From NCBI GenBank assembly GCA_036785375.1, contig JAWMAR010000061.1:9114001-9178000 (forward strand): 64,000 nt of DNA, written 5' to 3'. Within the stretch, counting starts at the first letter, position 1. Each line of letters opens with the position of its first letter. The stretch is from Leucoraja ocellata. Taxonomy: Eukaryota. The translations under genes were made by a program, and so were the position numbers. Positions 3,301 through 63,245 of this stretch are shown here, one piece after another. Under the pieces are notes generated by a model. The model was not told the DNA's origin, did no database searches, and saw only the letters and a list, made by a program, of their open reading frames with translations.

Positions 3301-6300
3301 AAGCTGGAAAAGTCTGTATGTAATAATAGAGCTTTTAAATAACATTCAGCATTTCAGACAGGAGAGAAGAGGAACAAAGTAAATTGGTGAAGAAAATTAA
3401 CGTAACATTTAAAGAAAATAATGCACAAACAATGGAAGAATATTTTGTTCAGACTCCTCACTATGTGACATGTGCAAACTTGTTACATGGATTTATATGG
3501 TGGATTATAATCTCTGTTAAATTTGACACGGTGTGTGTTACTTTACCCCATGTGTAAGAAAAAGACGTACATGTCATTAATAATGTGGCATCCAATATCT
3601 TTGACCCTGAGAAGAAAATAACAGATATTTACATAGCAAAGCTGCCTTGCTGATTGTCATGGTGAAGAGTGCACTTTAATTATCGGTAAAAGATGTTAGA
3701 ACAAACAGGAGCTTGAGGAGATCAATGCTTTACGGCAACTCTGCCATTCATCACGATCGTGGCTGGTCATCTACCTCAGCCATTTTCCTGCACGATTCCC
3801 TTAAACCCATCGTTCTCTGTACTCAATAACTTCAAAGACTAAGCCGCTAGAGCTCCAGGCTACAGAATTCCAAAGATTCCCCATCCTCTGATTGAAGCGG
3901 CACCCTCATTAAAGGGCCTCCTACTTATTCTTGTGATCTCTGGTTCTGGACACCCGAGCTAAGGGAAATATCCTCTGTCAAGCCCTGTCAGCACTTTGTA
4001 AATTTCAGCAAAAAACTCCTCTCATTTTTTAGTGTCAAACTCCAGACAATACAGGCCTAATCTACTCAATTTCATCTGATAGAAATTCTGCAGAGGGCAA
4101 TTGTGCAATTCCCAAAGCTACCTCCCTCGCTGAATTAAAGGGTGTGAAGACCTTTAGAAAGACTAAGAGAGGTCATTCCATACGATAGAGCACACACTGC
4201 CAGAGCACAGGTGGCTTTGGGGCATTTGAGGACAGTATTCATCAGTGCCCAGTTAGCTCAGGTACTTGTCTTACCTCTTGGAGCCTCCTATCTCGCTCTT
4301 CTTCTTCCTGTCCCTCCATCATGTGTAACCCCGACAGAACAATTAGTTCGGGATCAAAGTCCTTCACATTTAATACAAGAGTCTCCAGCATTTTCATCTC
4401 TGCATTTGATCTATCGTGAGAGAAGATGAAGCGATTGGCGTTGGGTGCGTTGATTTCCCCCCAGTTTTCTCCTGCACAAACAGACAGCATTTAGCTTCAT
4501 TCTGCACGAATAAAAGACTCTGGCAAAATTAAATAATCCATTGCTACAGTGGAATTGCCATGTATTTTCACCATATAGCTATCATTGACTACAGGGGCTT
4601 CAAACAAGCAGTGAAGAAGGGGAGAAAAAACACTGGCTCACCTAAAGTAACTTATTTATATCAATAAAACAGATTAGAATCTTTACAAACACTTTAAATT
4701 TGTAACATTGCCAGCAAAGTCCCATTGAGAGAGAAGTGGTATCCGGGACAACTGGGAGCTCCCTGTTCTCTCCACAATGTGCCATTACATGTCTAACATG
4801 CTTCGTCGAGTTTATTGTTCTACACACAAGCACGGTGAGGTACAGGTACAATCAAAGGGTTGCTTACAGGAGCATCACAGACACATAGACACAGACTAAC
4901 CCGCAAAAACAAATGATACATACATCCCACATAAAATTCCACTGCAACAAAAAAATATATAAGTAACATCTTAGCTTTGAGCATCTCCTGACCACATTCA
5001 CATCACTGTTTCATTGAACATGGAACAGTACAGCATGGGAATGGGCCATTTGGCCCACAATGTGTGTGTCGAACATAATGCCTAGCTGAACTGATCTTAT
5101 CAGCCTGCACGTGATCCATATCTCTCTATTCCCTGCACTTCCATGTGCGTAACTAAGAGTGTCTTAAGCGCCACTATTGTGCCTCCACCACCACCCCAAG
5201 CAATGCACTCCAGGCCCACAATTTTATTTTAAACCTGTCCCACACATCTCCATTAAACATTCCCCCTCTCATCCTCTAGAGTTGGACATTTCCACCCTGG
5301 GGAAAAAGATTCTGACCATCCACCCTATCTGTGCCTCTCATCATTCTACTCAGTCTCCCCTCAACCTGTGATGCTGAGAGAAAACATTCCAAGTCCAGCC
5401 AACCTCTCCCTGTCGCTGAAACCCTCTAATCCAGGCAGCATTCTGGTAAACCTCCGTTGCATCTTCTCTAAAGCTTCCACATCTTTCCTGTAATGGGGTG
5501 ACCAGAACAGAATGCAATACTCCAAATGTCCAAGAGAGCTGCATTGTGACTTCCTGACTCTTATATTCAACGCCCCGAGCAATGAAGGCAAGCATACCAT
5601 ATGCCTTCTTTATCTGAAGATGCGTTTCGACCTGAAATGCCATCTATTCCTTTTCGCCAGAGATGTTGTCTGACCCACTGAGTTATTTCAGCTTTTTGAG
5701 CCTGTCTTTATCACCCTATCTACTTGTATTGCCACTTTTAGTGAGCTAAGAACTTGTACTCCAAGATCCCTGTGCACATTAATGCTGTTAAGGGTCTTAC
5801 TATGAACTGTATGCTCTCTCCTGACATTCAACCTCCCCTCTGGTTAAACTATGTCTGCCATTTCTGCAGCTGACCTATATCCCACTGTTACTATATCCCA
5901 TTGCTACTGGTCCAATGTCGGTGTCCATCAGCAAACAAACATATATACAATGTTGTGACTTTGCCGTGCATAAACCTTAGCGTGCTTCACGTGACCACAC
6001 TTCAAAGATATTTAATTGTTTCAAAATTGCTTTGGTACGTTCTGCAAGAACTAACATCACAACCCAACCAATCATACCCTCAACCAACATCAATGTCTAT
6101 TCTGGCAAGGCCACTGGATGGGGAACCCTGTCGCATTCCTCACGCCAGGATTCATGGACTAATTGAAGCACCAGTTGCAATCAGGTTGATGTTAACAGCA
6201 ACACAACGAGAAAGATTTCTCACTCAGCACTCACCAGCATGGTATTCCAGAATGAGATGGAACTCATCCTTGTCCTGCAGAGATTCCGGTGGAATAATAA

Positions 6301-9300
6301 TCTGATCGTCCAAGAGTTCATGAAGCTTGGGACCCACAGGCCCACACAGTAGTACCTGCAGCCAAAACATGCCAAATTATTCCTTCCAAAAGCAGAACAA
6401 ACAGACGAGGCATGGCTGCACCTGCAGCTCACCCAAGCAATGTTGCAGAGATCATAGGAAGCCCTCACTGGTATTTAGTCTCCTGATGCTGGACTCTTAG
6501 GAGTTACTAGACTAATGAAGCAGGGAGATTTCAGCAGCCCTGCTGATGTCAGCGATGCGAGTTAAACCCACAAAGAGCTGTGGCAAGCATTTATAAACCA
6601 CCCCACCCCAGGCCTGACCCATACCCTGCACAGGCACTCAATCTCCCGGCAACGTGTAAACTGTGAGCGTGGTTCTCCAGCCATAGAATGTAGAAATAGT
6701 GGACTAACCGACAGGTTCCCAGATGAGCCCAGCTTCTGACCAATAAGAGCAGCATTTCCACCGACAAAGTGCTGCAAGAACAAAAGAAGAATCGAGTTAG
6801 GAATAGCTTCAAATCAGCAGCAGAGCAAATCCCATACCCTAGACACACAAAATGCTGCAGTAACTCAGCGGGATAGGCAGCATCTCTGGATAGAACAATG
6901 GATAACGTTTCGAGTCGAGACCCTTCTTCTTCTATTCTATCATTTTGAGTATCTTTGGTGTAAACCAGCACCTGCAGTTCCTTCCCACATGTATTCCATA
7001 CCCTTCCCATTCAGGCATAGTTTAATGCGTTCATCCCAACAATAAAAAGGAATAATTAGATAAAACTAATATAGAGTGATCAATTAATTTAGCTTCTCAA
7101 ACTGCCTCCAATGACAATGACTTAACTGCAGGACGTCAACTTTAGTGTTCGGTGATATGAAGTGCTTACTCCAGATGCACCATAAATGTGAAAGGAGACG
7201 TTCCATATTGAAAACAAAATGAGGATGAAAGCTGTTCTGAAGCTTAGCCACTCTTTTCAAATCAAGCAACCTGTCGGGTCGGGACCTTTCTTGAGAATGT
7301 CTGAAGGTTCCGATCTGAAACATCACGTGCCCATGTCATCCAGTGATGCTGCCTGACCCGCTAAGTGGGTCCAGCACTTTGTTGTTTTTTTTTTAATTTA
7401 CCAGCATGTGCAGTTCTTTGTCTCCACGTTTATCACAACCAGCCTGACTTTACTTTAAGGTGCTCCACAGCATCGGTTGATCAGTCTCCAGTCTAAAATT
7501 CACACGAGATCCCACAGAGTGTGGCCAGAGCACATTTAACAATGTTATCGGATTTGTTTAAAAGCTTCAAGGGACCAAACCCAGGCAGCACCTTTGGAAT
7601 GTCCAATAAGGGAGATTAGTATAACTGCATTCAGTTAGTACACAAGTAGCAGACTTCAGTCTGAGTACTGTGCACCATTCTGGTCTATTTTCCATCATTC
7701 TAATTGTCCCCCCCAAGGAAGTCGGAAAAGGTGGAAAATGCGCAAATAAAATAGGATTATGCTAAAAATGAAAAAGGTGTCCAGATTTTGGTGGGTTATA
7801 CATACAAATGCTGGATTGTGACCACATATTGACAGGGTCCTGAAACATTTGCAAAAGCCTTCTTTGTAAGAGCTGGCTCTGTTACTGAAGGCATTTTACG
7901 ACGTGGCTTTTGGCAGCTTGCCCAGCCAGCTTTCTATACACTATGGCTGGCTGCTGATTTGCAAAGTACAATGCACCTCCTTTTAAATCACACACCATTT
8001 CCCTGGAGACTGATCAACCGTGGATTGCACTACACTGGTGGACTGTGTAGTTCGTACCACAGCCTTGTTCAGGTCTGGGCCCAGGGTTGCAGAACACTGG
8101 CTGTGAAAGGTAACCTGCTTATCTAATCTGAGACGCAATACAATTCTCAGCAATCAGTAACCCATTCCTCTGGCATATGCTTTTTTTGCAATTTATTAAA
8201 GTATTTAAACAGTACAAGTTTGCACACGTATCACTTATGCCAATATGAATTTCGAAACCTTAAAACCAAACAATGCCTTAATTCACTGCCAAAATGTTTG
8301 TGGCCTAGGAGGCCATTTGGTCCACCATGTGTGTTATGTTCAAAAGAATCGCTATCATCTTGCAGCACTGGTCCACAATCCTGTACACACCTGGGCTCTT
8401 CAAGTGCTCCTCACATACTATCAACCCATGGAAACAGCTTCTCCGTCTACAACTGTTCCTGCAGAATGTTCCAAGTTCCTATCACCACTTCTATGCCTTC
8501 CACCAGTTACTCTGCCCCCTGGTTTTTAACCACTCTGCTTAAAAATAAGTCCTTCCGATTTACTCAATATTCAATATTTACTCACGTGTTACACACCAAT
8601 TAAGACTTTCTTCAGCCTTCACTATTCTAAAGAAAGCAATCATAGTGAAACCAATCTTTCCTGATAGCTTTAACCTTACAGTCCTCGCAAAACCCTTGTA
8701 AATCTCTTCAACCTTTCCACACTTTTCTTGAAATGAAGTTCAATGCACAAGTCCTGGTCTAACTAGTGTTATTTACAGTTCCAGCTAAACTCCAATGCTG
8801 TGATATTCTATGCTACAGCTAACAAGGAAAGCATTCAAGAAGCCTTTTCATCACCTTCATGATCTGTCCTGCTACCTTAAGGGGTATATACACTGAATCT
8901 CCTGTTCCTCCACACCGCTCACTACTCTCCCATTTACTGCACAGTGCCTTGCCTCATTTCATCTCCCCATATGCAACACACCAATCCAGATTCAATTCCA
9001 TTTGCCAATTTTTTGTTCAATTCATAAGTTTATAAATTCAGAAGTCATAGGAGCAGAATTAGGCCATTCGGCCCATCAAGTTTATTCCACCATTCAATTC
9101 TGGCTGACCTATCTGTCCCTCTCAATCCCATTTTCCTGCCTTCTCCCCATAAGCTTTGACTTTGTCTAATGCTTTCCACATCATTGACTGAGCAATCAGA
9201 GTTGCAACAAGCCCTGCCTTCCTTTCCACCAGTTCTGCATCTTCCGACCCAAGCCACCAGTGCAGCTGCACGGAAAGTCTACTTTGCTATCAAATTAACA

Positions 9301-21926: not shown

Positions 21927-24900
21927 CTAATGTTAAATAAAGAAAATAGGTAAAGGTTTATTAAATAAAACGTCCAGCTTAATATTATCCTTTCTACTGG
22001 ACAATCCAAGTCATGTCCTTGATCTAAAACATCATCTGTTTCTCTCTCCAGGAAAGCACCATAACTTGCTAAATATTATCATCATTATCTGTCTTTATTA
22101 CTGATAGAACGATTGTATCTTTGCCACTAGATCCGAATCAGGTTTGGAGTTCAGTGTTTGAAAATCACAATAAAATGCCATACATTTACACAAATGATGT
22201 ATGGTCAGTAATCTAATTGATGTGATATATTTCTTTCAGAAAACTTTCAAAAGGCATGGATTACAGATTGGTTCAGGGACAAAGTAAACCATGGGATTAA
22301 ATGGGTCATTGTTGGAATGGGAGATGGTGACGGGTGATGTCCCTCATGTGAAGCGATTGTCCACAATCTATATCAATGATGTAGATGAGAGGCAAGTGCA
22401 ATATGTCCAGATTTGCTGATCATAAGTGATAATAGAATTAAGCCATTCCGCCCATCAAGTCTACTCCTCCATTCAATCATTGCTGATCCATCTCTCCCTC
22501 CTAACCCCATTCTCCTGCCTTCTGACCTCTGACACGTACTAATCAAGAGAATATATCTATCTCTGCCTTAAATATATCCACTAACTTTGCCTCCATAGCC
22601 TTTTGTGGCAAAGAATTCCACAGATTCACCACCCTCTGACTAAAGAAATTCCTTCTCATCTTCCTAAAAGAACGTCCTTTAAATAGTGGAAACATCTTCT
22701 CCACATCCACTCCATCCAAGCTTTCGCTATTCGGTAAGTTTCAATGAGGTCCCCCATCATTCTTCTAAACTCCAGTGAGTACAGTCCCAGTGCCGGCAAA
22801 CGCTCATCATACGTTAATCTACTAATTCCTGGGAACATTCTTGAAAACCTCTCTGGACCCTCTCCAGAGCCAGCACATCCTTCCTCAGATATGGTGCCCA
22901 AAATTGCTCACAATATTCCAAATACGGCATGACCAGCGCCTTATAGAGCCTCAGCATTACATCCCTGTTTTTGTGAACAAGCCCTCTCAAAATAAATGCT
23001 AGCATTGCATTGGCTTTTTTTTACTACTGATTCGACTTGCAGATTAACATTTTGGGAATCCTGCACCAGTACTCACAATTCCCTTTGCACCTTCGATATC
23101 TGCATTCTCACCCCATTTAGAAAATTATTCTTACTATCAAAATGCACGACTCCACACTTTGCTACACTATATTCCATCTGCCACTTCTCCGCCCACTCTC
23201 CCAACCAGTCCAATTCCTTCTGCAGAGCCTGCTTTCTCTACACTACCTGCCCCTCCACCTATTTTCGTATCAGCCGCAAACTTGGCCACAAAGCCTTCAG
23301 TCAACTCATCCAAATCATGAATATAGAACGTGAAGAGTAGCGGCCCCAGCACTGAGCCCCGTGGAACTCTGCTAGTCACTGGCAGCCAACCAGAAAAAGC
23401 CCCCTTTATTGCCGCTCTTTGCCTTCTGCCTTCCAGCCAGCCTGCCATCCATTCTAGTATCTGCCAGTTAATACCATGGGTTCTCATCTTCCTTAGCAGC
23501 CACCCATGTGGCACCTTAGTAAAGGCTTTCTGTAAATCTAGGTTTCTGATGAAACAAAACAGGGAAGCAGTGAACTATTAGAAGGAATGCAAATGGCTCT
23601 ATTGGAATAGAAGGCTAAGGAAACAGTGAAGAGGGATGTACGGAGGAATATAATGTGGAAGAGTATGGAGTTGTCTACTTTGGATAAAAAGATTAAGGTA
23701 CTGTACTTTCCCCAAAATTGAGAAATTAAAAGCTGTTGATGCCCAGAAGGACGAAGGTCTACTTTACTAATCACTGCACAGCATAGTTCAGGATGACACC
23801 TCACTCACTGCAGTCCTGTCCACCGTGCCTGGTGGTGAAATATCAGAGCTGGTTGGCTCTGGGTTGTTACAGATTAATTACTGGGGAAGCAGGGACTTGA
23901 GGGATGAAATCAAGAGCATCTGTATGTTGGTTTCACTGTGATTCTCCCTGCAGCACAATAACTAAGTGACACATATGGCGAGCTCTAGCAGAAGACAACA
24001 GAACAACGCTGGCCTGGCAGCCTGGGCGCATTTACCTTGAATTGTTGGGAGGTAGCGTCTCTGTTGGAGTAGTTCAGGATGGCACGGCCAATGCTCTCGC
24101 CTCCAAGCTTGATGTCCTTGCAGTCGTCCATTGTCAGCCCGGCTTTCTTCCCCTTCCCCTCCAGTACAAAAATCAGTTGCTTCTTTCTGACAAGAAAAAT
24201 GTTACAATTGGAGGACTTCCTTTCCTGGGGTTTTGAACCGTAGACCTGTCTCTGGAGAGTTTGTCTCACAGCACCTTGTCAGAAGAGGCCTCAGGAAGCA
24301 CGGGGGGGGGGGGGGGGGGGGGGGGGAGGGGGGTTGGGAGGTTGGGAGAAGGGGGGGCTTTTGTAGTTTGCGATGTTAGCAAGTTACCACGTTTCATATC
24401 AATACACATAATCAAAAAGCACTCAATAGCATCACTGGTGTCTAAGCATGAAACATGTGGTTGAAATAACCTCAGCAAAGTAAAAGCAGCAAGTTACAGA
24501 TACAGGAGCAGATACTGGAAATCTAGAATTAAAACAAATGTCCCTCCCGCTGAAACTCTGGATTACTCTCGATTCTATTGTATATGTGTGTGTTATGATT
24601 GTGTTTATAATTTGTTTGGTTGTTTTGTTGTTTGTCTTTTGCACAAAAGTCCGCGAGCATTGCCACTTTCATTTCACTGCACATCTCGTATATGTATGTG
24701 ACAAATAAACTTGACTTGACTTGACTTGATATGGGAACTGAAGGATGGATCAGATGATCAATGGTTGGTGTGGAATGAAGAGTCTGAAGAAGGGTCTCGA
24801 CCCGAAACGTCACCCATTCCTTCTCTCCAGAGTTGCTGTCTGTCCTGTCGAGTTACTCCAGCATTTTGTGTCTACTGTTGGTGTGGGCCGAAGGACCTGT

Positions 24901-42900: not shown

Positions 42901-45900
42901 TGGTTTATTCAAAAACAGTTCACATTAGGAGGGTTGAAAACAGTTAGTTTGTAACCTATGTAAAATACATTTATTGGCTTTACCCACTGTAGTTCCAAGG
43001 GAACAATGCTGTAATTTCTTCATTCACTGTAGTTCCGTTGTAATGTAGACACCTCACTGAAAACCTGTCATTATTCTGATGCAGCTCAGAGAAGGTTTAT
43101 TCCACTCCTCTCAATACAAATGCTATTTTTTAAATTGTCTCCTAATTCATTTTTCTTCAATTAGGCAATGTTTCATTACGGTTGTGGCTGCCTTATTTCA
43201 GTTTACTAGATAATAAATTGATGTTTTAACTAAAAATATCAGTAAAATGCTCTCAATTTATAATCGTATCGATTTAACTTTCTTTTATATTCATGAACTT
43301 AATTACATTGTTAGGACCACTTATCATTGAACAGGTATGTGAGTAGGAAAGGTTTCGAGGAGAATGGATGAAATAGGGGGGTGGAAGATTGCAACCTTCA
43401 CGTGGTCTGCCCTGTTTCGACTAATGCAATCAACTCGACGTGTACAAACGGAAGATCAAATACAACAACTTGAGGCTGTGCACGCCACACGACAGAAGAA
43501 GAAGATGAAATAGAGGCAAATAGGATTAGTTTACTGAGCAATTGGGTTGGCATGAATGAGTTAGACCAAGGTGCTTGTTTCCCTGCTGTATAATTCTGTG
43601 ACTTTGGATTAGGCTGCATTTGGACTATTGCTTGCAATTCTGGTCATCCCAATACAGGAAAGATGAGGAGGCTTTGAAGAGGGTGCAGAGGAGGTTTACC
43701 CAAACACTGCCTGGATTAGAGGGTTTCAGTTACAGGGATAGATTTAGATAGGTATCTCTGGTTCGCTAGAGGTTGAGGAGAGACTTGTTAGAAGTATATA
43801 AAATGATGAGAGGCCTGGACAGTCAGAAACTTTGTCCCAGGGTGGAAGTGTCCAACACTGGTGGACATAGCTATTAGGCGAGAGGGGGAAAGTTTCATGG
43901 AGATGTGCGGTCAAGTTCTATCACACAGAAAATGGTGGGAGCCTGGTATGCACTGCCCAGGGTGGTGGTGATAGTGACCTTTAAGAAGCTTTTAGATAGG
44001 AAGATGGAAGTGTAGGGAATAGAGGGAAATGGATCATGTTCAGGCAGATGAGATCAGTTTAACTTGGCATCATGTTCGGCACAAATATTGTGGGCCAAAG
44101 GGCTGATTTCTGAACTATACTGTTTTTCAATCTTTTAAAATCATACTCACCTGTCCAGATTCAGTCTGTCTGCATATTCCGCCCGCTGTTCGGGTGTGCG
44201 GTATACAACTGGTATTCCAGGTGTTGAAGGAAGCTCAGAGAAAATGACATTGTCACCTGGGAATTTACAAAGGGTTTGGTTATAATACAGAATTTCTCAG
44301 CATACAGAGAAGGTCATTGGACTGGAACATTTGTAGCCAGGCTAACATACAAACGGTGCTCCAACTAAATAAATAACAAGGAAGCCAGAAATGAGCTACT
44401 TCTACAAGTCAGCAATTCAGCCAATTTGGAAGATGACTTTTGAGTTCATAACAAAATTCCTTAAAAAATCACAAGCCCCTGCAATCTGCTTTTACCATTC
44501 TATGGAATCATGATTTATACATTGTCCTCAACAATCCATGTTGGTTTCACAGCTTGGAGTAGCTCTGCCTAGGAAGTTTATGTACAACCCCGGTTTAAAG
44601 TTCTCCATTTATCAACCATCACCCCCGCCACCCCAACCTCAACAATATTCTGGATAGTGTTCAGGATTTCCATCATGCATGAACAAAAGAATCTAAGACC
44701 ATCAGACAAAACATAGAAGCAGACTGTATAAAGGTGAATCATGTGATGTGGTGTATTTGAACTTTCAGAAGACCTTTGTTAAAAGATTTTCAAATTAAAT
44801 CAGGATCTGTGGGTGGTGGGCTGGGGTAATTAATACCTGAGCATTGATTAAGGATAAATGAACAAACTAAATACAGAGGGTAATTTACAGGTTAGAACTA
44901 ACTTGTGAAGTGTCCCAGAGATCAGTGCCGATGCCCAGCTGCTCACAATCAATATCGAATATTTACAGTTTATTGCTATTTGCTGATGACACAAAGCTGA
45001 AAGTCAGTCTCCCCTGTGAGGAGATGCCAAGACGCTTTGGGATGATATGGACAGGGTGAGTAAATGGTCAAGGACATGGACGCAATAAAATGCAGAAAAA
45101 TATGAGATAAGCGGAGAAAATAAAAAGGTGATGTGATTTTTATGTGCAGAGAGATTAAAAAGTGTTGGTGCTGATAGGCATGTGGTTTCATAAACCACTT
45201 AACCATATCAGGACTGAGAGTAGAAAGGCATTTTTCATAGTTTTGTACAATTCTAATTCAGCCCACTTGACATAGGACTGTTGTTTCATTAGGCCTTTTA
45301 AAACAGAAACAGAATAGGTTACGAACAGGAAACAGGAAATACCTGGTAAGTACGGCAAGGTTCCGTGACCATGAGAATGGAAAGGCACAGCACTTTGAGA
45401 GCCCTGTCGAGATTTTAGTAAACTGGGACTTTGTGATGGCATGTCCCCAGCTGTTTCCTTCAATGACAGTTCTGAGTAGTGGCGGAGTGGATCATCATGA
45501 CAGGTTATTTCTGTGAACAACAAAATTCAATGTAGAGTCTACAGAAGTATAATCTGCCTCCCTATAACTTGTCTACCTGGCATGATGTTTGTGCTGGAGG
45601 TACAATAATTTGCATTCAAATAATCAACAATTAAATATTATTAAAATATACAGAATATCAATTACAGCAATAGAAAACGTGTAGAATTGTCCATGAGAAC
45701 AGAATGAAACTTTATTACAGAGTTCATTTTTGGGATACATACCAAACTTTTCTCACAAATATATATTTTCCAGGATAGCTCAGTGATTCTGTGAAAGGCA
45801 ATATTAGTCCCATTCCCTTGCACTATTATGAAGTTCAGCCATATTATTAACGTTTTCCCATTATGGGTTGCAGTAATTTGCTCATCTTAGAGTTGTTTTA

Positions 45901-48655
45901 CAGAAAATTTGTTTCAAAAGTTCATAAGGTCTTTGTTACATAGAGGGAAACAAAATAAGCTGCATTCTGTAGTAGAACCAGAGACAAAAGATCACGTGAG
46001 AGTTTAAAGCATTGTGGAAGAAGAACTGAATTGTAGGGTGGTCAAAAAATGTTTTTGGCATAGTGACCTTCATCAGTCAGGATATTGAGTGTAGGAGTTG
46101 GGAGGTCATGCTGCAGTTATATAAGATAGTGGTGAGACCACAGTATTGTGTCCAGTTTTGAAGTATGTTTGAATCTGAGAGAGATAAATGTTAGTAGTCA
46201 GACAAGTGAATACTTGCAGATGTACCATACCTGGTTTTCCATGGAAATTCTTGTCTCCATCCACATTCAAAAGTTTATGTGAAGGAAGGAGATCCTTATT
46301 TGCTCTATAATCAAGCTGCAAAATAAAAAACACAGATTTAAGTGAAGTGAATTTCATGATTCACTGAATAAAACCACAAACATCTATAATGTAGAATAGA
46401 ATTTTGTCATTATTGTCATCTGTGCCAAGGGGCAGTGGAATAACATTTGTTTTGTGTGCTATCCAGGTCAATCATACTGTACATGAGTACGTTGTGCAAG
46501 AGAGGAAAAGGAAAAAAATGCAGCATATATAGTGTTCCAGCTACAATGAAAGTGCAGATAAAACAAGCGCAAGGGTGCAACAAGGTAGATTGGGAGATTG
46601 GGCGTTTGACAAGTCCGTTCATGAGTCTGATGGCAGCAAGAAAGAAGCTGTTTTTGAATCTGATGGTACATGTGTTCAAGATTATGTATCTTCTACCTGA
46701 CAGGACAGGGGAGAATAGAGAATGAGCAGGGTTGAAGAGAGAAGAAATTTTTAAAAGTATTTCACATATTTGGTCCAATGACATTCAAAACGCATTTTGA
46801 TTCTAAAGTCAATTCTTGGCACAATTATCATTAATTAGAAAAGAAGAAAACAACATTTTTTGTCGCAAGTAAAACCAATATTTTTTCAGTGTAATTTCTA
46901 TCAATCATTGACACTTTTTACCTGCTGCTTCTGAGATAAACGATCTCCGACAGCTGAAGCCTGCACAGTTAACTGAAGACTGCAAGTATTAATCTGCAAA
47001 CAAAATAATTAAGTTATAATACCTGTAATACACTGTACCTTGTACTAATAAAATACTATGTGATCAGAAGCCTAATTTTCACCACATCATTGTCAACACT
47101 AAACCATTAGAGGGCAGACTCATAACATTGCCAACTCTTTTGGTTTAAATAAATAATGTCATGTCTCAAAAAAAACACTGTTTTGTCACAATATGGAAAA
47201 ATATTGTATTGCAAAAATTGTCACAGTCAAATTGCCACAGAATTGGCTCTCCTCACCAAGACTTACTCCACCAACAAATGCAGAGATCACACCTGAAGTA
47301 CTCTGGGCAGTCCTAACAACTGCACTTGAGGAAGAATGTACAGACCTCAGTGGGACTGCAATGATAACTGAGTGCCAGTGTTAGGGTGCACGTGGAAGGG
47401 CAGAGGCAACATTTAGAGAGCTATGTTCCAACAGATGTCAGATAGAAGGACAGGATGGGTTTCAAGGCTGCGTGCCAAATGCAGATAAATGTGACTAGCC
47501 CAGGGTCATGAACAAAGTGGGCCGAAAGACCATTTTCAATACTGTATAACTCTATGACTCTAAGTCACAAGTTACTAACTAGGAATTGATATGCCAGCCA
47601 CTTTTCTTTGTAAAATGAACAGGTGCTTGCAACCCTTTTTCTACCCTCCATGTAAATCCTATGCAATTTTCTGGGTGTTAGAAGGCAGTTATTAATGAAT
47701 AACAGTTTGATAGCGCTGTCAGAGGTGTAAAAACAAATTGAACCCAAAATTACCAGAACAGAAAACTGAATTGTGGAAATATTACAATGGCTATTATGAG
47801 TGTTTTAAATGATGAATTCGACATTAGGTACGGAAGACTGTAATCTCGTTGTCAAAAGATGAGGAAAGGTTCTTTGTTAAGTAAAGCCCCAATGTGGCAG
47901 GCGGCCTCATTCAAACTCTTCCTTCCTTTGTAGCTGAGGGAGGAAGGAAGGAGATTTGAGGATGGATTCAAATGAAAACGAGAGCAGCTCAGAAATTGAC
48001 AGGAAATATGATGTTGACTGAATTAGAGGATATTGGCTAGGAGAGGTTGCACAAATTTGTATTCTTTTCTCTGGAGCGCCAAAGGTTTCCCCCGGGCAGT
48101 GACCCTGTGCCCTCGGAGTGACCCTTCACCCCCGGAGAGTGACCCCGTGCCCTCGGTGTGACCCTTCACCACCGGACAGTGACCTTCACCCCCGGACAGT
48201 GACCCCGTGCCCTCGGAGTGACCCTTCACCCCGGACAGTGACCCAGTGTCCCCGGACAGTGACCCCGCACCCCCGGACAGAGACCCTTCACCCCCGGACA
48301 GTGACCCTTCACCCCGGATAGCGACCCCGCGCCCCCGGACAGAGACCCTTCAGCCCCGGACAGTGACCCTTCACCCTGGACAGCGACCCCGCGCCCCCGG
48401 ACAGCGTCCCTTCAGCCCCGGACAGTGACCCTTCACCCCAGACAGTGACCCCGCGCCCCCGGACAGAGACCCTTCAGCCCAGGACAGTGACCCCTCACCC
48501 CCGGACAGTGACCCGGTAGCCGAGACCTGATACACGCGGCTCGCCGGTCGGAACCGCACACACACAAAGGGCGAGGCGTGGGTTGGGTTTCCATGGATAC
48601 TCACAGCACCAACCGGGTTTCCGAGCAGCCTCGCCCGATACTTGCCGGGCAGCAT
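21732..48655 (-). CDS. LRRC49: Leucine-rich repeat-containing protein 49 (centriolar satellite / tubulin polyglutamylase complex subunit), 17 exons, 2247 nt, 748 aa
   Basis: MLPGKYR start; LRRs LRLLNFQHNLIT, LDLYNNQIEEISGL, LRVLNLAGN; LRRcap LDGNPIAQESWYK; C-terminal LWPQIFIELVRD. All 16 introns are GT-AG and the summed length is divisible by 3. Confidence 0.95.
22420..23540 (-). mobile_element. CR1-type LINE, 5'-truncated, RT domain to 3' tail, frameshifted
   Basis: PHGWLLRK...VTSRVPRGSVLGPLLF...KFAADTKIGG; LYKALVMPYLEYCEQFWAPYLRKD. Confidence 0.9.
24036..24186 (-). CDS. LRRC49: LRRC49 exon 16
   Basis: KKQLIFVLEGKGKKAG...GESIGRAILNYSNRDATSQQFK. Confidence 0.92.
24578..24729 (+). mobile_element. 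3' end of Rex1/Babar-type LINE with (CTTGA)n tail
   Basis: Near-identical to 28865-29006; ends aataaacttgacttgacttgacttga. Confidence 0.85.
25095..25204 (-). CDS. LRRC49: LRRC49 exon 15
   Basis: VTPMDVVMSERLFGILARVAASHIPQPRLLSLLGEI. Confidence 0.95.
25398..25600. repeat. Triple tandem (~60-bp) duplication of one arm of the palindromic Penelope-derived repeat
   Basis: agtctagagtaactcag...ggcagcatctctggtgaacatggat x3; the opposite arm is similarly triplicated at ~37600-37790. Confidence 0.85.
25827..26046 (-). mobile_element. Full-length tRNA-derived CORE-type SINE with L2-type 3' end and (TTA)n tail
   Basis: Minus strand: A box TGGCGCAATGG, B box GGTTCGAATCC, core GTTGTGTCCTTGGGGCAAGAC, tail GTGAAGCACTTTG...GTGCTATATAAATA. 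Confidence 0.85.
26055..26140. repeat. Short 15-bp tandem repeat GATGTTGGGCCCCTT x3 with GGAGCCAATG x2
   Basis: Visible directly. Confidence 0.8.
26161..26346 (-). CDS. LRRC49: LRRC49 exon 14
   Basis: HFKFQDTNLHKLQQFNALAQ...WKYYVLFRLSHFGLQKINGAE. Confidence 0.95.
26542..26779 (-). CDS. LRRC49: LRRC49 exon 13
   Basis: LQGLSIAESHLAELERDTLHLYGLGALESLERSW...IKFPNIL. Confidence 0.95.
28250..29006 (+). mobile_element. 5'-truncated Rex1/Babar-type LINE (RT C-terminus, DUF1891-like) with 3' UTR and (CTTGA)n tail
   Basis: Open ORF KELIMDFRR...FKYLGVHISEDMTW...KARQRLYHLRQLRKF...HP...FQLLRSGKRLR...SYFPEAIR. Confidence 0.9.
29135..29310 (-). CDS. LRRC49: LRRC49 exon 12
   Basis: EKRRLAISNAARQWEMQQ...WPRES. 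Confidence 0.88.
30190..31110 (+). mobile_element. CR1 LINE fragment with a nested palindromic element (30459-30774), itself interrupted by a CR1 tail (30568-30650)
   Basis: CR1 ORF2 C-terminal DNA resumes after 30775; near-TSD atagaaatttaga/atagaaaattaga; ~46-bp internal duplication at ~30935-31026. Confidence 0.8.
31552..31635 (-). CDS. LRRC49: LRRC49 exon 11
   Basis: EEERRMASVMARKEDDKKREIHKQAILK. Confidence 0.95.
32443..32590 (-). CDS. LRRC49: LRRC49 exon 10
   Basis: FENIACLADSVSLSEVTLDGNPIAQESWYKQTLLRHMVQLRQLDMKKIT. Confidence 0.95.
33587..33724 (+). mobile_element. Short (~135 bp) non-autonomous retroposon with AAG-rich tail and 11-bp TSD
   Basis: TSD GAACCTGTTCC at 33576-33586 and 33725-33735; second copy at 43377-43503. 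Confidence 0.8.
34830..34891 (-). CDS. LRRC49: LRRC49 exon 9
   Basis: RDADSLPCLQRFFLSFNNIS. Confidence 0.93.
35790..36510 (+). mobile_element. CR1-type LINE 3' fragment with a Penelope-end insert (~35905-36005)
   Basis: VKKANGIVAFI translation; ttctggtcgctccattacagaaggga; CR1 tail. Confidence 0.8.
37990..38165 (-). mobile_element. Degenerate V-SINE (HE1-like)
   Basis: Minus strand tggcacagctggtgg head and gggggttttctctgggtgcaccaggtttcaccccaca V-domain. Confidence 0.6.
38804..38947 (-). CDS. LRRC49: LRRC49 exon 8
   Basis: ISRIENINHLTELRVLNLAGN...LTELNLRRNHIESV. Confidence 0.95.
41256..41322 (-). CDS. LRRC49: LRRC49 exon 7
   Basis: IKNISNLENLTDLDVLDLHANQ. Confidence 0.95.
42361..42564 (-). 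CDS. LRRC49: LRRC49 exon 6
   Basis: RNLTVCPILEGEQQLRLLNFQHNLITQIQ...LRVLMLGKNR. Confidence 0.95.
43377..43503 (+). mobile_element. Second copy of the ~135-bp retroposon with (AAG)n tail and 10-bp TSD
   Basis: TSD GATGAAATAG at 43367-43376 and 43504-43513. Confidence 0.8.
43600..44125 (+). mobile_element. CR1-type LINE 3' fragment
   Basis: ttctggtcatcccaatacaggaaagatgaggaggctttgaagagggtgcagaggaggtttacc...gtgggccaaaggg tail. Confidence 0.8.
44151..44256 (-). CDS. LRRC49: LRRC49 exon 5
   Basis: GDNVIFSELPSTPGIPVVYRTPEQRAEYADRLNLDR. Confidence 0.9.
45343..45510 (-). CDS. LRRC49: LRRC49 exon 4 (168-nt symmetric, possibly alternative)
   Basis: EITCHDDPLRHYSELSLKETAGDMPSQSPS...PYLP; phase 1-1, open frame, ttcacag| and |gtattt. 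Confidence 0.65.
46231..46315 (-). CDS. LRRC49: LRRC49 exon 3
   Basis: LDYRANKDLLPSHKLLNVDGDKNFHGKP; |gtatgg. Confidence 0.8.
46922..46993 (-). CDS. LRRC49: LRRC49 exon 2
   Basis: INTCSLQLTVQASAVGDRLSQKQQ; ttgcag| and |gtaaaa; phase 0-0. Confidence 0.75.
48098..48513. repeat. GC-rich minisatellite, 18-21-bp unit (CAGTGACCCTTCACCCCCGGA variants) in LRRC49 intron 1
   Basis: About 20 tandem variant copies. Confidence 0.92.
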
Positions 48656-50180: not shown

Positions 50181-50264
50181 GTGCTGCCAGAGATCTGCTG
50201 GAATCAGCTACAAGAATAACATTTAAGAGGCATTTAGACACTCTTCCTCTCCAATGAGACCGGG

Positions 50265-50885
50265 GCGGGGATGGGCTAGGGGTTTGGCGTTGGGCTGGGC
50301 CAGGGTTGGGTTTGATGGGGCTGGGCTGAGATGGGAGGGTTGGGCTGAAGGATCTTTGGGCTGAATGGGGCTAGGGGTTGGACTGGATGAGGCTGGGGGT
50401 TGGATGGGGCTGGGCCGGGTTGATTGGACTAGGGCTGGGGGTTGGGCTGAATGGGGGTTGGGCTAGGGCTGGGCCAGGGTTGGGTTTGGTGGGGTGGGGC
50501 TGGGCCGGGTTGATTGGGGCTGGGCCAGGGTTGGGTTTGATGGGGCTGGGGGTTGGACTGGATGGGGTTGGGGGTTGGATGGGGCTGGGCCGGGTTGATT
50601 GGGCTAGGGCCAGGGTTGGGTTTGATGTGACTGGGGGTTGGTCTGGATGAGGCTGGGCCGGGTTGATTGGGGCTGGGGGTTGGGCTAGGGCTGAATGGGG
50701 TTGGGCTAGGGCTGGGCCAGGGTTGGGTTTGATGGGGTTGGGCTGGGGGCCGGGCCGGGCTGGGCCGGGTTGATTGGGGCTGGGGGTTGGGCTGAATGGG
50801 GTTGGGCTAGGGCTAGGGCTGGGCCAGGCCAGGGTTGGGTTTGATGGGGTTGGGCTGGGGGCCGGGCCGGGCCGGGTTGATTGGG
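50265..50885. repeat. G-rich complex tandem repeat (GGGCT/GGGTT/GGGCTA units) upstream of LARP6
   Basis: Dense G3-G5 runs separated by 1-4 nt; generates spurious Pro- and Gly-rich ORFs. Confidence 0.9.
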
Positions 50886-51142
50886 AGGCGGGCTGTTGAT
50901 AAGCGGCCGATGGTGGCAACCAGGTTCCGCCGCCTCCCATGTACAACCTGCAGGACGCGCTGCTGCGTTGGGCCGCCTTCCTGGCGCCCCCGGCACTCCG
51001 GGAATCCCTGGCGCCCGCCCGGGACCACAGGCTCCGCCCGCCGGCTCGTAGGCCCGGCCTACCCCTACCCCCGGCCCCGCCCTGCGCTCCTCCTCCGGCC
51101 CAGGCTCGGCCTCGGGGCGGGGGCCCGTGCTCGCCGCTGACC

Positions 51143-51315
51143 ATGGAGGGGGGAACGCTCGGCGACACCGGGGCGACAGTGCCGGCCGGGGAGGCCGCGC
51201 CGCTTGTCCGCATCCAAGTGGCGGCGGCCGAGGAGGAGCCGGTGGCGCGGCCGGAGGGCGGCAGCGTGGGCAGCGGCACGGATGAAGAGGCGGCTCCCGG
51301 GCCCGGGATAAACAG
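51143..51315 (+). CDS. LARP6: LARP6 exon 1 (start codon uncertain: 51143 or 50939)
   Basis: ACCATGG Kozak; VRIQVAAAEEE resembles human VQIRVAIQEAE; AG|gtaccg. Confidence 0.75.
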
Positions 51316-54300
51316 GTACCGAGGCCGCGGGGAGATGGAGAGGGAGGGGGGGAGGCGGCGGCCGGGGAGATGGAGGCGGGGGTCGGAGCTTCGTTAATCC
51401 GCTCCCTGTCTGTTACAGCGGTACTGAAGATGATCTGGCGGCGGAGTGGGCGCCACCGGACAGTGAGCTGGTACAGAAACTTGTTGCCCAGATTGAATAT
51501 TATCTGTCTGATAACTACCTGGAAAACGATGCATTTCTACTAAAGCACGTGAGAAGAAATAAGATGGGCTATGTCAGTGTTAAACTGCTGACTTCTTTCA
51601 AAAAGGTAACATTAATATTATTGCGTAAGAATGAACTGCAGATGCTGGTTTAAACCGAAGGTAGACACAAAAAGCTGGAGTAACTCAGCGGGACAGGCAG
51701 CATCTCTGGAGAGAAGGAATGGGTGACGTTTCGGGTCGAGACCCTTCTTTAATATTATTGCCACGCTTTGCCCTGCCCTCCTCTCTTCCAGCCCCCCCCC
51801 CAACAGTCCCGACTGGAAATGTTACCCATCCATGATGACAGAGATGTTGTCTGTCTTGCGGAGTTACTCCAGTACGTTATCTTTTTGTTGTAAACCAACA
51901 CTTTGAGTGTCTTGTGTTGTAGCTTGCATGGTGGCGGTGGCTAATTTGAAGCTTTAGACTAACACCAATAAGTTAGTAGAATGGATCCCTCACTGACTTA
52001 ATCTCCTTGCTGGGTTGCTCAAAGTCAGATGATGGGGAATTATTACATAGATAAAGAACGTTGAAGTCCCAATCATCTACTTTCAACTATAGTTGATTAT
52101 TGTGGTATAGTACTTGCATTTCAAAACTAATAATCCACCCATCTGCTAATACCCCCCTCGTGTGTATTCACTTATTACTTGTCGTGCTTTCTCCCCCATC
52201 TCCATCGGTCTGAGGAAGGGTCTGTCCAGAAATGTCACCTGTCCATTCCCTCACCAGGTGCTGCCCGATCTGCTGAGTTAATCCAACACTGTTTTGCTAG
52301 TACCCCTGTATGTATTCAATGAATGAATAATGCCACTGGCATTTAAGGAAGAATTTGGAAAGATCAAATCCCATCTGGTTCATGAATGTCCTCAGGAAGG
52401 AAATGAACTCTCCTTGCCCTGAACTAGCCCCATAGACTAACTATTGTGTTCCATTGCAATGGCCCAGCAAACCATTTAATGTTATCACTACCATGTATTC
52501 GAACAGAATAACGCCAGTCATTTCACCCAACAGCCACATAGGCACCTAGTTTGACACGCATCCAAATCATTCACATCCAACACTAAACGAGGTGAGATCG
52601 AGCAATGAAGATAGAGGGTCAAGATGATACAAACAATCTGGGTGCGTGGGCAAGAACATGGCAGATGGAATATAATGTGCGGTCGCCATTTTAATGCTCA
52701 GACTGGAGAAAGTTTTAAATTGTAAGAAACTGGGCAGTGTGGATGTTCAAAGAGACTGAAGTTTGCTCTTGCACAAGTAACTGAACATCGAGCCGGTACA
52801 GCGAGTCATTCAAAAGGAATGTAGTACAGTATTTGGAGAATTTGAATGCAGAAAAAATCAGTTCAGTTCTATACGTTCTTGGTGACTCCATATTTACTAG
52901 TTTTTGTCTCGCCTAAGAATGAAAATAGTTGCCATAGTGAAAGTCTAGTGAAGGTTCACTAGACTATTCCAAAAGTGGGATGTTTGCCGTAGAATAGGGT
53001 GAGTGGATTATAATCTCAAATTTACAATAATGAGAGCAGATCTAAACAAAATAGTTAAAGGGCTTGTGGGCTTGACATTAGACGGCTTAGGAGTCTGAGA
53101 TCGGGAACACAGTTTCTCACAAAAGTACACCTTAAAGGATAGTGAATTAGTGGAATTCTCTTCCCTCAAGCTATATTCTTTCCAATGACAATGATTGATT
53201 TCTGGACTGAGGGATGTGGATTGTAAAGTGAAGCTGAGGAAGGTGATCAGCCTCGATCTTGATAATGCAGGACAGGCTCAGTGGGATAGCCTACATTAGT
53301 TAACAGATAGAGTATGGAAAGAGGCCTTGCATTAGGTCTCCGCCCATCCCTGTGCACCCACATCCCTCCCAGCTTTATATTTCTTTCTTATTATCTGACC
53401 TTCACCTCCAGCCTTTGTAATTTATTCCACTCATCTGCCCATCAAACCTCTCGTCTGTATCCACCGTAGACAAAAATGCTGGAGAAACTCAGCGGGTGAG
53501 GTAGCATCTATGGAGCGAAGGAAATGGGTGACGTTTCGGGTCAAGACCCTTCAGGCTGATATGAGGATGGGGGGGGGGGTGGGGGGGAGAAGAAGAAAGG
53601 AAGGGGCGGAGACAGTGGGCTGGGGGAGAGCTGGGAAGGGAAGGAGAACGCAGGGACTACCTGAAATTGGAGAAGTCAATGTTCATACTGCTGGGGTGTA
53701 AATTGCCCAAGCAAAATATGAGGTGCTGCTCCTCCAAATTACGGTGGGCCTCACTCTGGCCATGGAGGAAGCCCAGAACAGAAAGGTTGGATTCGGAATG
53801 GGAAGGGGAGTTGAAGTGCTGAGTCAACGGGAGATCAGGTTGGTTATTGTGAACAGAGCGGAGGTCTGTTTCCACCTATCACTTACAATGCCTTGCCCCC
53901 TCCCCCATCTCTCTTTATCAACATTCTCAACCCTCCTTCAATCTAAATAAGGGTCCCAGCCGAAGCATCGTCTATCTATTCCCTCAGCAATGGTTTAACT
54001 GCTTTGATATTTCATTACTATAATTAAGTGAATCGTCCAGGTGTTCATTCCTGTTGAATAGGCATAGATAAAACAGAATCTTTTGTTCTAGGTAAAACAC
54101 CTCACTCGTGACTGGCAAACAACTGCCTTTGCTCTGAAGTACTCTGACCTTTTGGAACTAAATGATGAAGGGAAAAAAGTGAGACGGAAGACAGTCGTTC
54201 CAGTTTTCCCCAGTGAGCATCTTCCAAGTCAGATACTGCTGGTATATGATATGCTTCTGTGTCCAGAACTCCAGGTTTTAAATGATAATCTAGAATGTGA

Positions 54301-55180
54301 CAATGCTGGCTTGCAAGAAAGGATAATGGAGTACGTACTGAAGGCATTTGGTGTGTTTGGTCCAGTCATCTCGGTTCGTGTTATAAAGCCAGGGAAGGAG
54401 CTCCCTGCAGATGTGAAAAGACTGGGCAATCGCTATTCACAGTTGGGAACAAAGGACTGTGTAATTGTAGAGTATGAAAATGTTGAATCTGCAATTAAGG
54501 CACATAAATCACTTGGAAAAAACGATGAAAGGGGAATGAAAGTGGTGCTAATAGAGATGAAACCACCAAAGAAGAAAGTTGTCAGAGAGAAGAACAAAGA
54601 GGCTGAAGATGTTGGCAAGAATGAGATGAAAAGCAAATCTAGCAATAAGCGAGTGGAGGAGTTGCAGTATATATGTGAAGATTCCTCAGCATGCAGCTCT
54701 TCTGAACCAGAGAGCAACCCTGCATCTCCTATGCTTGGCCGCAAACCCAAACCCATTAATCAACTGAGCCCCAACACCTATAAAAACAATCACCTGAGTC
54801 CTAACACTTCTCCCCGAGCTAGTCCATGGAACAGTCCGCGTTCCAGCCCATCGATGCAACGGAAAGATACGGCTGTGCACAAATCTCCGCTCACTGCAGA
54901 TGCTAAGCTTGGAGCTCCTGCAAATGCTGAGGTTGGAAGTAAGTGGACTGACTATTCATCGGACAGCAGCAACACACCGTCTGGCAGCCCCTGGGTACAG
55001 AGACGCAAGCAAGCTCAGGTGGTATCACATGAGAATACTCCAGTTGGCAGCCCCATGCTTTCTAGAAAGATGCACAGTGCAGGCGGGCTGCCTGCAGGAG
55101 TAGTACGCATGCCCAGAGGACCAGACGGCACTAAAGGATTCCAAACATCTGTAGAGAGGAGCAAGCCGCTTGTAATCTGA
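51143..55180 (+). CDS. LARP6: La-related protein 6 (Acheron); join(51143..51315,51419..51605,54092..55180), 482 aa; in-frame upstream ATG at 50939
   Basis: La motif QIEYYLSDNYLENDAFLLKHVRRNKMGYVSVKLLTSFKKVKHLTRDW; RRM FGVFGPVISVRVIKPGKELP; C-terminal LSA/SUZ-C GVVRMPRGPDGTKGF. Confidence 0.95.
51419..51605 (+). CDS. LARP6: LARP6 exon 2 (La motif)
   Basis: EWAPPDSELVQKLVAQIEYYLSD...LLTSFKK; ttacag| and |gtaaca. Confidence 0.95.
53468..53865 (-). mobile_element. Penelope-like element 3' fragment (GIY-YIG C-terminal part and terminus)
   Basis: DLRSVHNNQPDLPLTQHFNSPSHS...LEEQHLIFCLG...MNIDFSNF; similar to the 18269-18956 copy. Confidence 0.85.
54092..55180 (+). CDS. LARP6: LARP6 exon 3 (RRM, Ser/Pro-rich region, LSA domain, stop)
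   Basis: VKHLTRDWQTTAFALKYS...; contains the 342-aa ORF of the track. Confidence 0.97.
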   Translation, partial: VKHLTRDWQTTAFALKYSDLLELNDEGKKVRRKTVVPVFPSEHLPSQILLVYDMLLCPELQVLNDNLECDNAGLQERIMEYVLKAFGVFGPVISVRVIKPGKELPADVKRLGNRYSQLGTKDCVIVEYENVESAIKAHKSLGKNDERGMKVVLIEMKPPKKKVVREKNKEAEDVGKNEMKSKSSNKRVEELQYICEDSSACSSSEPESNPASPMLGRKPKPINQLSPNTYKNNHLSPNTSPRASPWNSPRSSPSMQRKDTAVHKSPLTADAKLGAPANAEVGSKWTDYSSDSSNTPSGSPWVQRRKQAQVVSHENTPVGSPMLSRKMHSAGGLPAGVVRMPRGPDGTKGFQTSVERSKPLVI

Positions 55181-56179: not shown

Positions 56180-56600
56180 GAAACAAGGAACTGCAGATGC
56201 TGGTTTATATATTTTTTTAAATACTGTTGGGTTGCAAGCTGCTAAAGCGGAATTAGATGCTGTTCCTCTAGTTTGTGTGTACCTCATTGTGGCAATGGAG
56301 GCCCAGGGCAGAAAGGTCAGTGTGGGAATAGGAAGAGTTCAAATGGTTAGCAGCTGGGAGATTCGGGCCTTTGCAAACCCAGTGCAAGTATTTGGTCGCC
56401 AGGTTTATGCTCGCCAATATACAGGAAGCCACATTGCGAACAGCAGGGGATGTTAGAGGAATTGCATGTGAACCTCTATCTAACCTGGAAGGGTTGCTGG
56501 AGATGAGGGGGGTATAGGGACAGGTCTTGCATCTTATGTGGTTGTGGGGAAAATTACCTGGGTGGATTGGGATGTGTGAACCAAGAGGTTGCACATGGAG
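56180..56600 (-). mobile_element. Older degenerate Penelope-like GIY-YIG fragment
   Basis: PNLPAANHLNSSYSHTDLSALGLHC and RCKTCPY translations. Confidence 0.65.
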
Positions 56601-56969: not shown

Positions 56970-56975
56970 TTTATT
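56970..56975 (-). promoter_or_regulatory. Candidate TM2D3 polyadenylation signal
   Basis: AATAAA on the minus strand ~1.1 kb after the stop, preceded by TGTA motifs. Confidence 0.55.
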
Positions 56976-58065: not shown

Positions 58066-58231
58066 TCAGATGTACAACGAGCCGTCAGCAGGCCCAACAT
58101 AACCAATCCCAATTAGCAGCACGTCTATCAAGGTCCATATTCCAAGGCCGCCAAAGCTAAAGAGTTTACCAAGACCCTCCTTCCATTGGCCCAAATAGAA
58201 TCGGTCAGCTCCAAACCCTCCCAAAGTGATG
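58066..58231 (-). CDS. TM2D3: TM2D3 exon 6 (TM2 domain with DRF motif, stop)
   Basis: ITLGGFGADRFYLGQWKEGLGKLFSFGGLG...GSLYI-TGA. Confidence 0.97.
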
Positions 58232-62773: not shown

Positions 62774-62787
62774 TGCATCTGCCCCGC

Positions 62788-62867
62788 CCAATGAGGGGCA
62801 ACCGAGACCGGCCAATCACACCGCAGAGAAAGTGGGCCAATCACAGCCCGCGCGGAAAGCCACCAAT
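62788..62867 (-). promoter_or_regulatory. TM2D3 promoter with four phased CCAAT boxes
   Basis: CCAAT at 62788, 62812, 62837 and 62863 within a CpG island. Confidence 0.75.
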
Positions 62868-62911
62868 CAGCGGCGAGTGGAAATAAAGGCTGCAGATGCT
62901 GCAATGCTGAG

Positions 62912-62939
62912 CAAAGATCCTATAGCAATAGGATCTTTG
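62912..62939. mobile_element. 28-bp palindromic TIR-only hAT-like insertion with 8-bp TSD
   Basis: ATGCTGAG-CAAAGATCCTAT AGCA ATAGGATCTTTG-ATGCTGAG. Confidence 0.8.
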
Positions 62940-63051
62940 ATGCTGAGCGAAAGCACAAGTGGTTCATCACACAACAGAGAGAGATATATATAGAGGCACA
63001 TATAGTGTGGAATAAGACCCTTCGGCCCAACCTGCCCACACCTCCACACAC

Positions 63052-63245
63052 TGTGTAGGAAGGAACTGCAGATGCTGGTTTAAGCCAAAGATAGACCCAA
63101 ATTGGGACAGGCGGCAACTCTGGAGATGAATGGGTGATGTTTCAGGCAGAGACTGAAGAAGGGGCTCAACCCGAAACATCACCTATTCCTTTTCTCCAGA
63201 GATGCTGCCTGTCCGGCTGAGTTACTCCAGCATTTTGTGTCTATC
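63052..63245. mobile_element. Palindromic Penelope-end-derived element
   Basis: gtaggaaggaactgcagatgctgg...ctgaagaaggggctcaacccgaaacatc...ctgagttactccagcattttgtg. Confidence 0.8.

Follow-up and report, generated by a model that had tools for sequence, protein, structure and literature searches.

Hammerhead cores of the skate Leucoraja ocellata as 3' termini of an abundant, putatively Neptune-type Penelope-like retrotransposon

A 64,000-nucleotide stretch of the Leucoraja ocellata genome (assembly GCA_036785375.1, contig JAWMAR010000061.1, positions 9,114,001 to 9,178,000, forward strand), hereafter the window, contains many copies of a hammerhead ribozyme core. These cores are the 3' termini of an abundant, recently active Penelope-like element (PLE), which its linker motif places as a putative Neptune-type member. 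The solo and palindromic mini-elements that carry most cores are likely by-products of the autonomous element's own insertion, and not a self-copying family. We consider probable an overall account in which short copies would be run-off products from the RNA start, palindromes would arise by priming from two target ends, the motif would decay neutrally and a separate 66-nt tandem offshoot would be moved in trans.

The parent element was recognized from window positions 18267–18956, which are 99.7% identical over 690 nt to the 3' end of the full-length copy L092; the Penelope origin proposed in an earlier note, made from the window sequence, is thus confirmed. L092 has a 1,230-aa open reading frame (ORF) with PLE reverse transcriptase (RT) motifs (DKG, YIDD), a CxxC linker and a GIY-YIG endonuclease, together with a truncated upstream copy in partial tandem (pseudo-long terminal repeat, pLTR), a tail of about 36 nt, a second terminus and a 14-bp target duplication. 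The ATG of the element's ORF lies about 165 nt downstream of the ribozyme motif. The L092 ORF matched Pfam RVT_1 just under the cut-off (E 2e-6), and the window fragment, with CCHH motifs read by eye, matched GIY-YIG also under the cut-off (E 0.001); Pfam gave no GIY-YIG match on the whole long ORFs, where the endonuclease was read from motifs. In the window copy and in L092 a Zn-finger-like linker, C-x4-C-x2-C, precedes the endonuclease, and such a linker is common to Neptune and Nematis in the available part of PMC8557442.

A genome search with the window endonuclease peptide gave 164,860 first-look candidates, and all 150 of the 150 scored were 100% identical; several lie in open frames longer than 1,100 aa, and head-to-head pairing is frequent among them. 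Each of the three main subfamilies includes 18–29 long copies, and 3' ends fall in two registers, with and without the tail of about 36 nt. A degenerate pattern of the intact core has 63,497 exact matches in the 3.44-Gb assembly, against 0 for the control. The assembly appears to carry duplicated haplotypes (e.g. C178 and C32), so genome-wide counts overstate haploid numbers.

Pattern searches of the window found family cores at all coordinates named earlier, confirming that the same core recurs there. Nineteen sites lie within nine mismatches of the 28-mer core: those at 17048 and 24784 are exact, 40244(+) and 13369(−) have four mismatches each, and the cores at 36508 and 52210 were recovered with a generic core pattern. 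A terminus profile built from 140 termini detected 42 copies of the terminus (arms) in the window and had 0 matches when run on 1.4 Mb of reversed control sequence. Seven window cores (13369, 17048, 18335, 24784, 33275, 36508 and 40244) retain the 11 core positions in full, together with the cleavage triplet and the four helix II pairs; three of them are intergenic, four are antisense in LRRC49 and none lies on a pre-mRNA sense strand. The four copies earlier listed as intact are so, but the youngest intact core, 18335–18362(−), was missing from that list. Their distribution through introns was a partial description: 24784 and 40244 are antisense in LRRC49, 13369 and 17048 are intergenic, and 30 of the 42 arms are within the coding spans of ADPGK, LRRC49 and a gene with La and SUZ-C domains, presumably LARP6-like, with 12 outside. 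Two copies retain coding sequence, the cores at 18335(−) and 53530(−) lying 3' of the GIY-YIG endonuclease coding region. Nine head-to-head insertions are visible in the window, three with clear 11–17-bp target duplications read by eye, and the palindrome at 12716–12945 has a predicted fold of −140 kcal/mol (z −14). No Rfam hammerhead family was matched in the window at E up to 1, and minimal motifs are not expected to score.

The ends of the short copies were analyzed in an intron sample of 1,397,500 bases inside nine long genes, with strand assigned from Pfam exon matches. It contains 686 arms (335 sense, 351 antisense), a density of about 490 per Mb. Taking the sample as typical and leaving duplicated haplotypes aside, this density would mean about 1.7 million arms in the assembly. 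Among arms that both span the core and extend to position 90, the upstream untranslated region (UTR) is absent from 269 of 349. A stricter set, from which 378 of the 686 arms were dropped as tandem, UTR-bearing, short or more than 18% diverged, leaves 308 well-aligned short arms, and 139 of these start at −5 to 0. In 139 solo arms without UTR, T(−1) is kept in 81%, G(−2) in 65% and A(−3) in 53%, reaching background by −4/−5, and UTR-bearing copies keep TCAGT at 85–92%. Young copies, at loci partly chosen by search, show the same 5' edge, and loose ends occur at this edge in one DNA sequencing run. The letters TCAGTCT just before the core fit the initiator consensus. From the DNA ends and this consensus, the sharp edge 0–5 nt before the core is likely the start of the element's RNA. 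Starts at the cleavage site (+27 to +29) were found in 4 of the 308 short arms, which is chance level (p 0.5), and hammerhead cleavage was rejected as the origin of short copies. A deletion subfamily without part of the core (clusters 4 and 5) was rejected as well, since breakpoints vary copy by copy.

In the same sample, 262 arms form 131 head-to-head pairs with a median of 194 nt, and 127 of the 131 junction signatures are distinct. Of the 86 short pairs that could be scored for the tail, 71 have it on a single arm (43 expected, p 8e-10), 4 on both and 11 on neither, and young long pairs present a single tail in 9 of 10. Target duplications of at least 10 bp were detected in 29 of 71 pairs and in 0 controls; their length varies from 11 to 20 bp. 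Arms of one insertion show 0.6 differences, against 1.36 between different insertions (p 0.013), and the subfamily class agrees between arms in 73 of 75 short pairs. In 24 of 68 pairs the tail-less arm exceeds the tailed one by at least 10 nt at its 5' side, and the reverse occurs in 11; in L100 and L101 the tail-less arm is longer at its 5' side by 955 and 665 nt. A PLE protein was described in vitro, in the available part of PMC11167929, as cutting and extending both strands, with two RT starts bounding the tail, and is predicted to be dimeric. The pair architecture favours priming from both cut target ends over fold-back.

In the mechanism proposed, transcription would start at the initiator-like TCAGT just before the core, and RT would start inside the RNA at two sites flanking the tail. 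Priming near the RNA 5' end would give run-off cDNAs of about 100 or 135 nt. With a staggered cut, each target end would serve as a primer at its own site, the template being RNA from a single source element; the resulting pair of cDNAs would become joined head-to-head, often where short stretches are self-complementary. The hairpins would then form afresh at each insertion from two fixed copying starts. A miniature inverted-repeat transposable element (MITE) was rejected, as there is no fixed internal junction, the target duplications vary and the partner is an RT.

The 5' edge could also be read as an RT stop or a 3' splice site, or the short copies could be self-promoted and re-mobilized like a short interspersed element, in place of marking an autonomous mRNA start. 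This is unlikely, though it has points in its favour: a pyrimidine tract and CAG stand directly before the core, an intron of D. virilis ends at helix I in the available text of PMC4209133, the Penelope promoter is internal according to that of PMC2377424, and the 66-nt derivative has the same start letters and spread without an ORF. On the other hand, G at −2 is kept in most solo copies and A at −3 in about half, which is beyond a splice cut; the RNA rows listed, from a related organism, have no splice joint at the core; and short and long copies have subfamilies and tail rate in common (91/213 versus 41/101). As for the pairs, one nascent strand could have primed itself or folded back to give the inverted arm, perhaps with an antisense template, a model published for the same architecture (PMC3846280, consulted as an excerpt). 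It agrees with the source variants shared by the arms of a pair and with the many junctions at short self-complementary spots, such as helix II. However, fold-back of one cDNA would make one arm a subset of the other, which the 24 short pairs, L100 and L101 contradict: each arm holds sequence that the other lacks, an outcome open to two primings but not to the fold-back of one strand. Fold-back also leaves unexplained why the second arm ends in the register of solo tail-less copies, and we regard it as improbable.

Concerning the ribozyme, the letters of the minimal PLE hammerhead, the bulge after position 9, the G10.1–C11.1 pair and the palindromic helix III are present in all three main subfamily profiles, so the motif recognized in the earlier note is genuine. 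Helix I has at most 2 bp in 83 of 91 intact cores and at least 4 bp in 4 of 91, all four at palindrome junctions; the completion of ribozymes by palindromes at junctions was rejected, these being rare accidents. The changes in the helix II variants, earlier described as keeping their pairing, are one-sided, U-A to U.G only; two-sided compensatory changes show no excess over shuffles at any of the four helix II pairs, nor at any of the 10 pairs tested. Sense depletion of intact cores, expected there of active ribozymes, was absent from the introns: among 378 core-spanning arms, 56 intact cores are sense and 35 antisense (p 0.035; p 0.10 with age as covariate). The catalytic G12 is part of a CpG; 70 of 262 copies (26.7%) carry a mutation there, against 144 of 593 (24.3%) at other CpG sites, and the mutated share is 25.9% in sense and 27.6% in antisense copies.

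The predicted 5' RNA does not fold into the hammerhead motif (z −0.6), and a dimer fold of the motif has a predicted cost of 16.5 kcal/mol. In two raw RNA runs of the related organism there is no pile-up of read ends at the cleavage site. The terminus is covered about 1,000 times deeper than the 5' ORF in this RNA; one run has both strands equal, and in a single-cell run antisense reads prevail about 4:1, over the endonuclease region as well, so that strand is uninformative here. Experiments described in the available part of PMC4209133 detected no in vitro cleavage by single minimal motifs. After insertion the motif would decay neutrally and be inactive, with its 2-bp helix I and masked in hairpins. 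It appears inert in these copies, and any ribozyme function would lie in the autonomous RNA, possibly assisted by protein, by analogy with the Anolis Poseidon element PAc.

A secondary peak of arm starts at GAAAC led to tandem 66-nt units with one fixed junction, which has 23,712 exact matches in the genome. The first 100 junctions listed belong to 30 arrays, about 3.3 junctions per array, which would give about 7,000 arrays; 28 of these 30 lie within 0.9 Mb of contig C1, in GC-rich regions, and none was seen in about 1 Mb of AT-richer introns. The window has two decayed arrays (25390–25617 and 37598–37799). In the units, the GUC triplet and the palindromic letters of helix III are retained, without CUGANGA and helix II; the units start at GAAAC without the 5' half, and only the array head has the full core. 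Ten arrays were examined, from 30 fetched overlapping loci: several have heads beginning at the common TCAGT-core, two have inverted ends with one tail, and 4 of 10 share a composite block of 225 nt that recurs between runs. In the L266 array, a variant common to units 3 and 7 suggests a higher-order repeat of four units.

The 66-nt offshoot is a non-autonomous derivative using the ends of its parent, and is likely moved in trans. The simpler origin of its units is slippage or template jumping in a linear master. A split retrozyme, in which the catalytic head cuts substrate-only units and the 66-nt RNAs are circularized and rolled out by the Neptune RT into the roughly 7,000 arrays, seems very improbable. 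Unit differences are 1.0 within arrays and 1.23 between arrays, which does not discriminate one circle per array. Stabilization of the active fold by tandem units was rejected: in one example, from the one array with an intact head, this fold is 4.0 kcal/mol less favourable than the minimum, and shuffling the intervening units gave values just as good in 34 of 60 trials (5.9 versus 5.6 ± 2.3).

The earlier note had read the palindromes as a self-propagating non-autonomous family, MITE- or retrozyme-like, with ribozymes potentially acting on host pre-mRNA, and we consider this reading extremely improbable. The 63,497 intact cores, the stable hairpins, the slightly higher conservation of non-CpG core sites and the existence of one non-autonomous derivative speak for it. 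The hairpins are indeed long, as 122 of the 131 pairs are predicted to fold with at least 40 bp (median 70 bp), and a real derivative exists, but it is the 66-nt tandem, which that note did not describe, and not the palindromes. A separate family of palindromes and solos is contradicted by the distinct junctions and by the long copies in each subfamily. Cutting of host RNA finds no support in the strand counts of arms and intact cores, the short helix I, the decay of G12 in line with other CpGs, the chance-level 5' ends at the cleavage site, the RNA read ends or the inactivity reported in vitro.

Insertion by-products of the autonomous element thus remain the preferred explanation, and several observations count against parts of it. 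Non-CpG core sites are less diverged than invariant non-core sites (157/2602, 6.0%, versus 951/11904, 8.0%; p 0.0005), so the mutation-rate check of the earlier note was answered in two ways, G12 behaving like other CpGs and the remaining core being slightly more conserved; we ascribe the difference to selection in source elements plus alignment bias, from which post-insertion selection is not separated. Intact cores lean to the sense strand, the opposite of purging. The RNA start is a prediction from DNA ends and the initiator consensus, and the letters TCAGT can also be read as a 3' splice site. The tail could not be scored in 45 of 131 pairs, and of the 86 that were scored, 15 carry either two tails or no tail. 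Finally, the two-site biochemistry is known from a lizard Poseidon element, and the putative clade given here follows the linker motif.

Comparisons with known systems are made from the available parts of the cited sources. The PLE architecture with an endonuclease and the minimal hammerhead are already described (PMC3846280, PMC8557442, PMC4209133). The PLEs of Adineta vaga (PMC3846280, PMC8557442) share with this element a pLTR in partial tandem with an initiator-like motif, an adjacent inverted 5'-truncated copy, a 30–40-nt tail on one arm and a target duplication. Here the copies are mostly reduced to the terminus, at the high density given above, the duplications have 11–17 bp against 8–10 there, and arm content argues against the self-priming proposed for A. 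vaga (PMC3846280). Minimal type I PLE hammerheads (PMC4209133) present the same core letters, the extra base after position 9, G10.1–C11.1 and the palindromic 15.2–16.2, and are also mostly solitary copies from truncated elements; however, helix II has 4 bp here and 7–8 in that description, helix I has 2 and 4–5, respectively, and the exact copies exceed the 4,000–9,000 given for coelacanth and Xenopus.

In PAc (PMC11167929), two 3' registers also bound the tail, and its RNA-seq, as far as the excerpt reports it, has no RNA ends at the cleavage site, as in the related organism's RNA. The PAc ORF starts inside the ribozyme, whereas here the ATG is downstream and the linker is of Neptune type. 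Like the animal non-LTR retrozymes (PMC7229834; bioRxiv 10.64898/2026.07.22.740005), the 66-nt offshoot is non-coding, derived from the pLTR and arranged in dispersed tandems with Penelope-type ends; it alone in this family is non-coding, dispersed and descended from a shared master, but its units, without CUGANGA and helix II, fall outside the definition of those sources, which is a complete ribozyme per unit. Palindromes and solos are not tandem and are not retrozymes. The literature searched yielded no report of PLE hammerheads in skates, nor any publication dealing with this element in skates or with the 66-nt unit; Repbase/Dfam and the supplements of a retrozyme preprint may already hold both families.

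The features of the window are listed in Table 1. The exons of LRRC49 match a skate protein at 71–100%. A tRNA-His gene at 16544–16615 (+) and a U3 snoRNA gene at 17875–18092 (+) lie between ADPGK and LRRC49, with family termini 50 to 500 nt from them. The tailed terminus at 51619–51758 starts about 15 nt downstream of a LARP6 splice donor. A distant Penelope-like endonuclease remnant (30% identity) lies at 56220–56561 (−), and fragments of other LINE-type elements at 23170–23574 (−) and 28137–28820 (+). Unrelated minisatellites and G/C-rich repeats occupy 2500–2872, 11973–12202, 48083–48559 and 50263–50895, near the first exons of ADPGK, LRRC49 and LARP6.

Table 1. Members of the element family and host genes in the 64-kb window
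Position	Strand	Feature	Remarks
1..12432	−	Host gene ADPGK, coding exons	3' end beyond window
5612..5709	+	Solo terminus, decayed core 5614–5641	ADPGK intron, antisense
6843..6990		Head-to-head insertion: tail-less arm (−) with core 6904–6931 and tailed 3' fragment (+)	
7266..7422		Old head-to-head insertion	Plus-strand arm carries the tail
12723..12936		Palindromic insertion: tailed arm (−), tail-less arm (+)	~15-bp target duplication; no CUGA box left at junction; outside coding spans
13266..13404	−	Solo tailed terminus, intact core 13369–13396	Starts 2 nt before core; ~13-bp target duplication; outside coding spans
14820..14912		Short core-less head-to-head remnant	
16960..17140	+	Young terminus, intact core 17048–17075	Nested in older terminus; flanked by tRNA-His and U3 genes
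18067..18193	−	Terminus with mutated G12, core 18165–18192	Beside U3 gene
18267..18956	−	Young 5'-truncated putative Neptune-type copy: linker Zn-finger, GIY-YIG endonuclease, 3' UTR, intact core 18335–18362	From translation; terminus without tail and ~14-bp target duplication, from flanks
21735..48655	−	Host gene LRRC49	18 matches to coding exons
24776..24884	+	Solo tail-less terminus, intact core 24784–24811	LRRC49 intron, antisense
25390..25721		Tandem derivative: head with core 25585–25612 (−), then two 63–65-nt units from GAAAC	Plus inverted tailed arm (+)
30458..30777		Palindromic insertion: tailed arm (−), tail-less arm (+), cores 30643–30670 and 30681–30708	~12-bp target duplication; interrupted by ~75 nt of another repeat
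33239..33385		Asymmetric head-to-head insertion, intact core 33275–33302 (+)	Antisense to LRRC49; ~17-bp target duplication
35682..36012	+	Two decayed termini	
36507..36625	+	Old terminus, CTGATGA core unchanged at each of the 11 core positions	Antisense to LRRC49
36910..37093		Old head-to-head insertion, core 36972–36999 (−)	
37598..37799	+	Tandem derivative: three 64–69-nt units without catalytic half	Tail remnant at end
40238..40373	+	Tailed terminus, intact core 40244–40271	Antisense to LRRC49
51143..55180	+	Host gene with La and SUZ-C domains, presumably LARP6-like	Start read by eye
51619..51758	−	Tailed solo terminus, mutated CUGA (51725–51752)	~13-bp target duplication; antisense in LARP6
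51805..52295	+	Two old termini, core 52210–52232 with broken helix II	LARP6 intron, sense
53457..53908	−	Older truncated copy: endonuclease C-terminus, UTR, decayed core 53530–53557	LARP6 intron, antisense
63050..63245		Palindromic insertion: tailed arm (−), tail-less arm (+, core 63153–63180)	~11-bp target duplication

The formation of inverted, tailed PLE insertions is stated to be open in the available part of PMC8557442, and only one PLE has been studied in vitro so far. By extrapolation, the skate genome would hold about 300,000 miniature two-armed insertions, whose ends discriminate between insertion models, and the start of the element's RNA is predicted to within a few bases. If it were true, the split retrozyme would be a ribozyme-less circular RNA parasite dependent on the ribozyme and the enzyme of its parent. 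For the host, introns hold about one predicted 70-bp hairpin per 11 kb, which is likely a large substrate for A-to-I editing.

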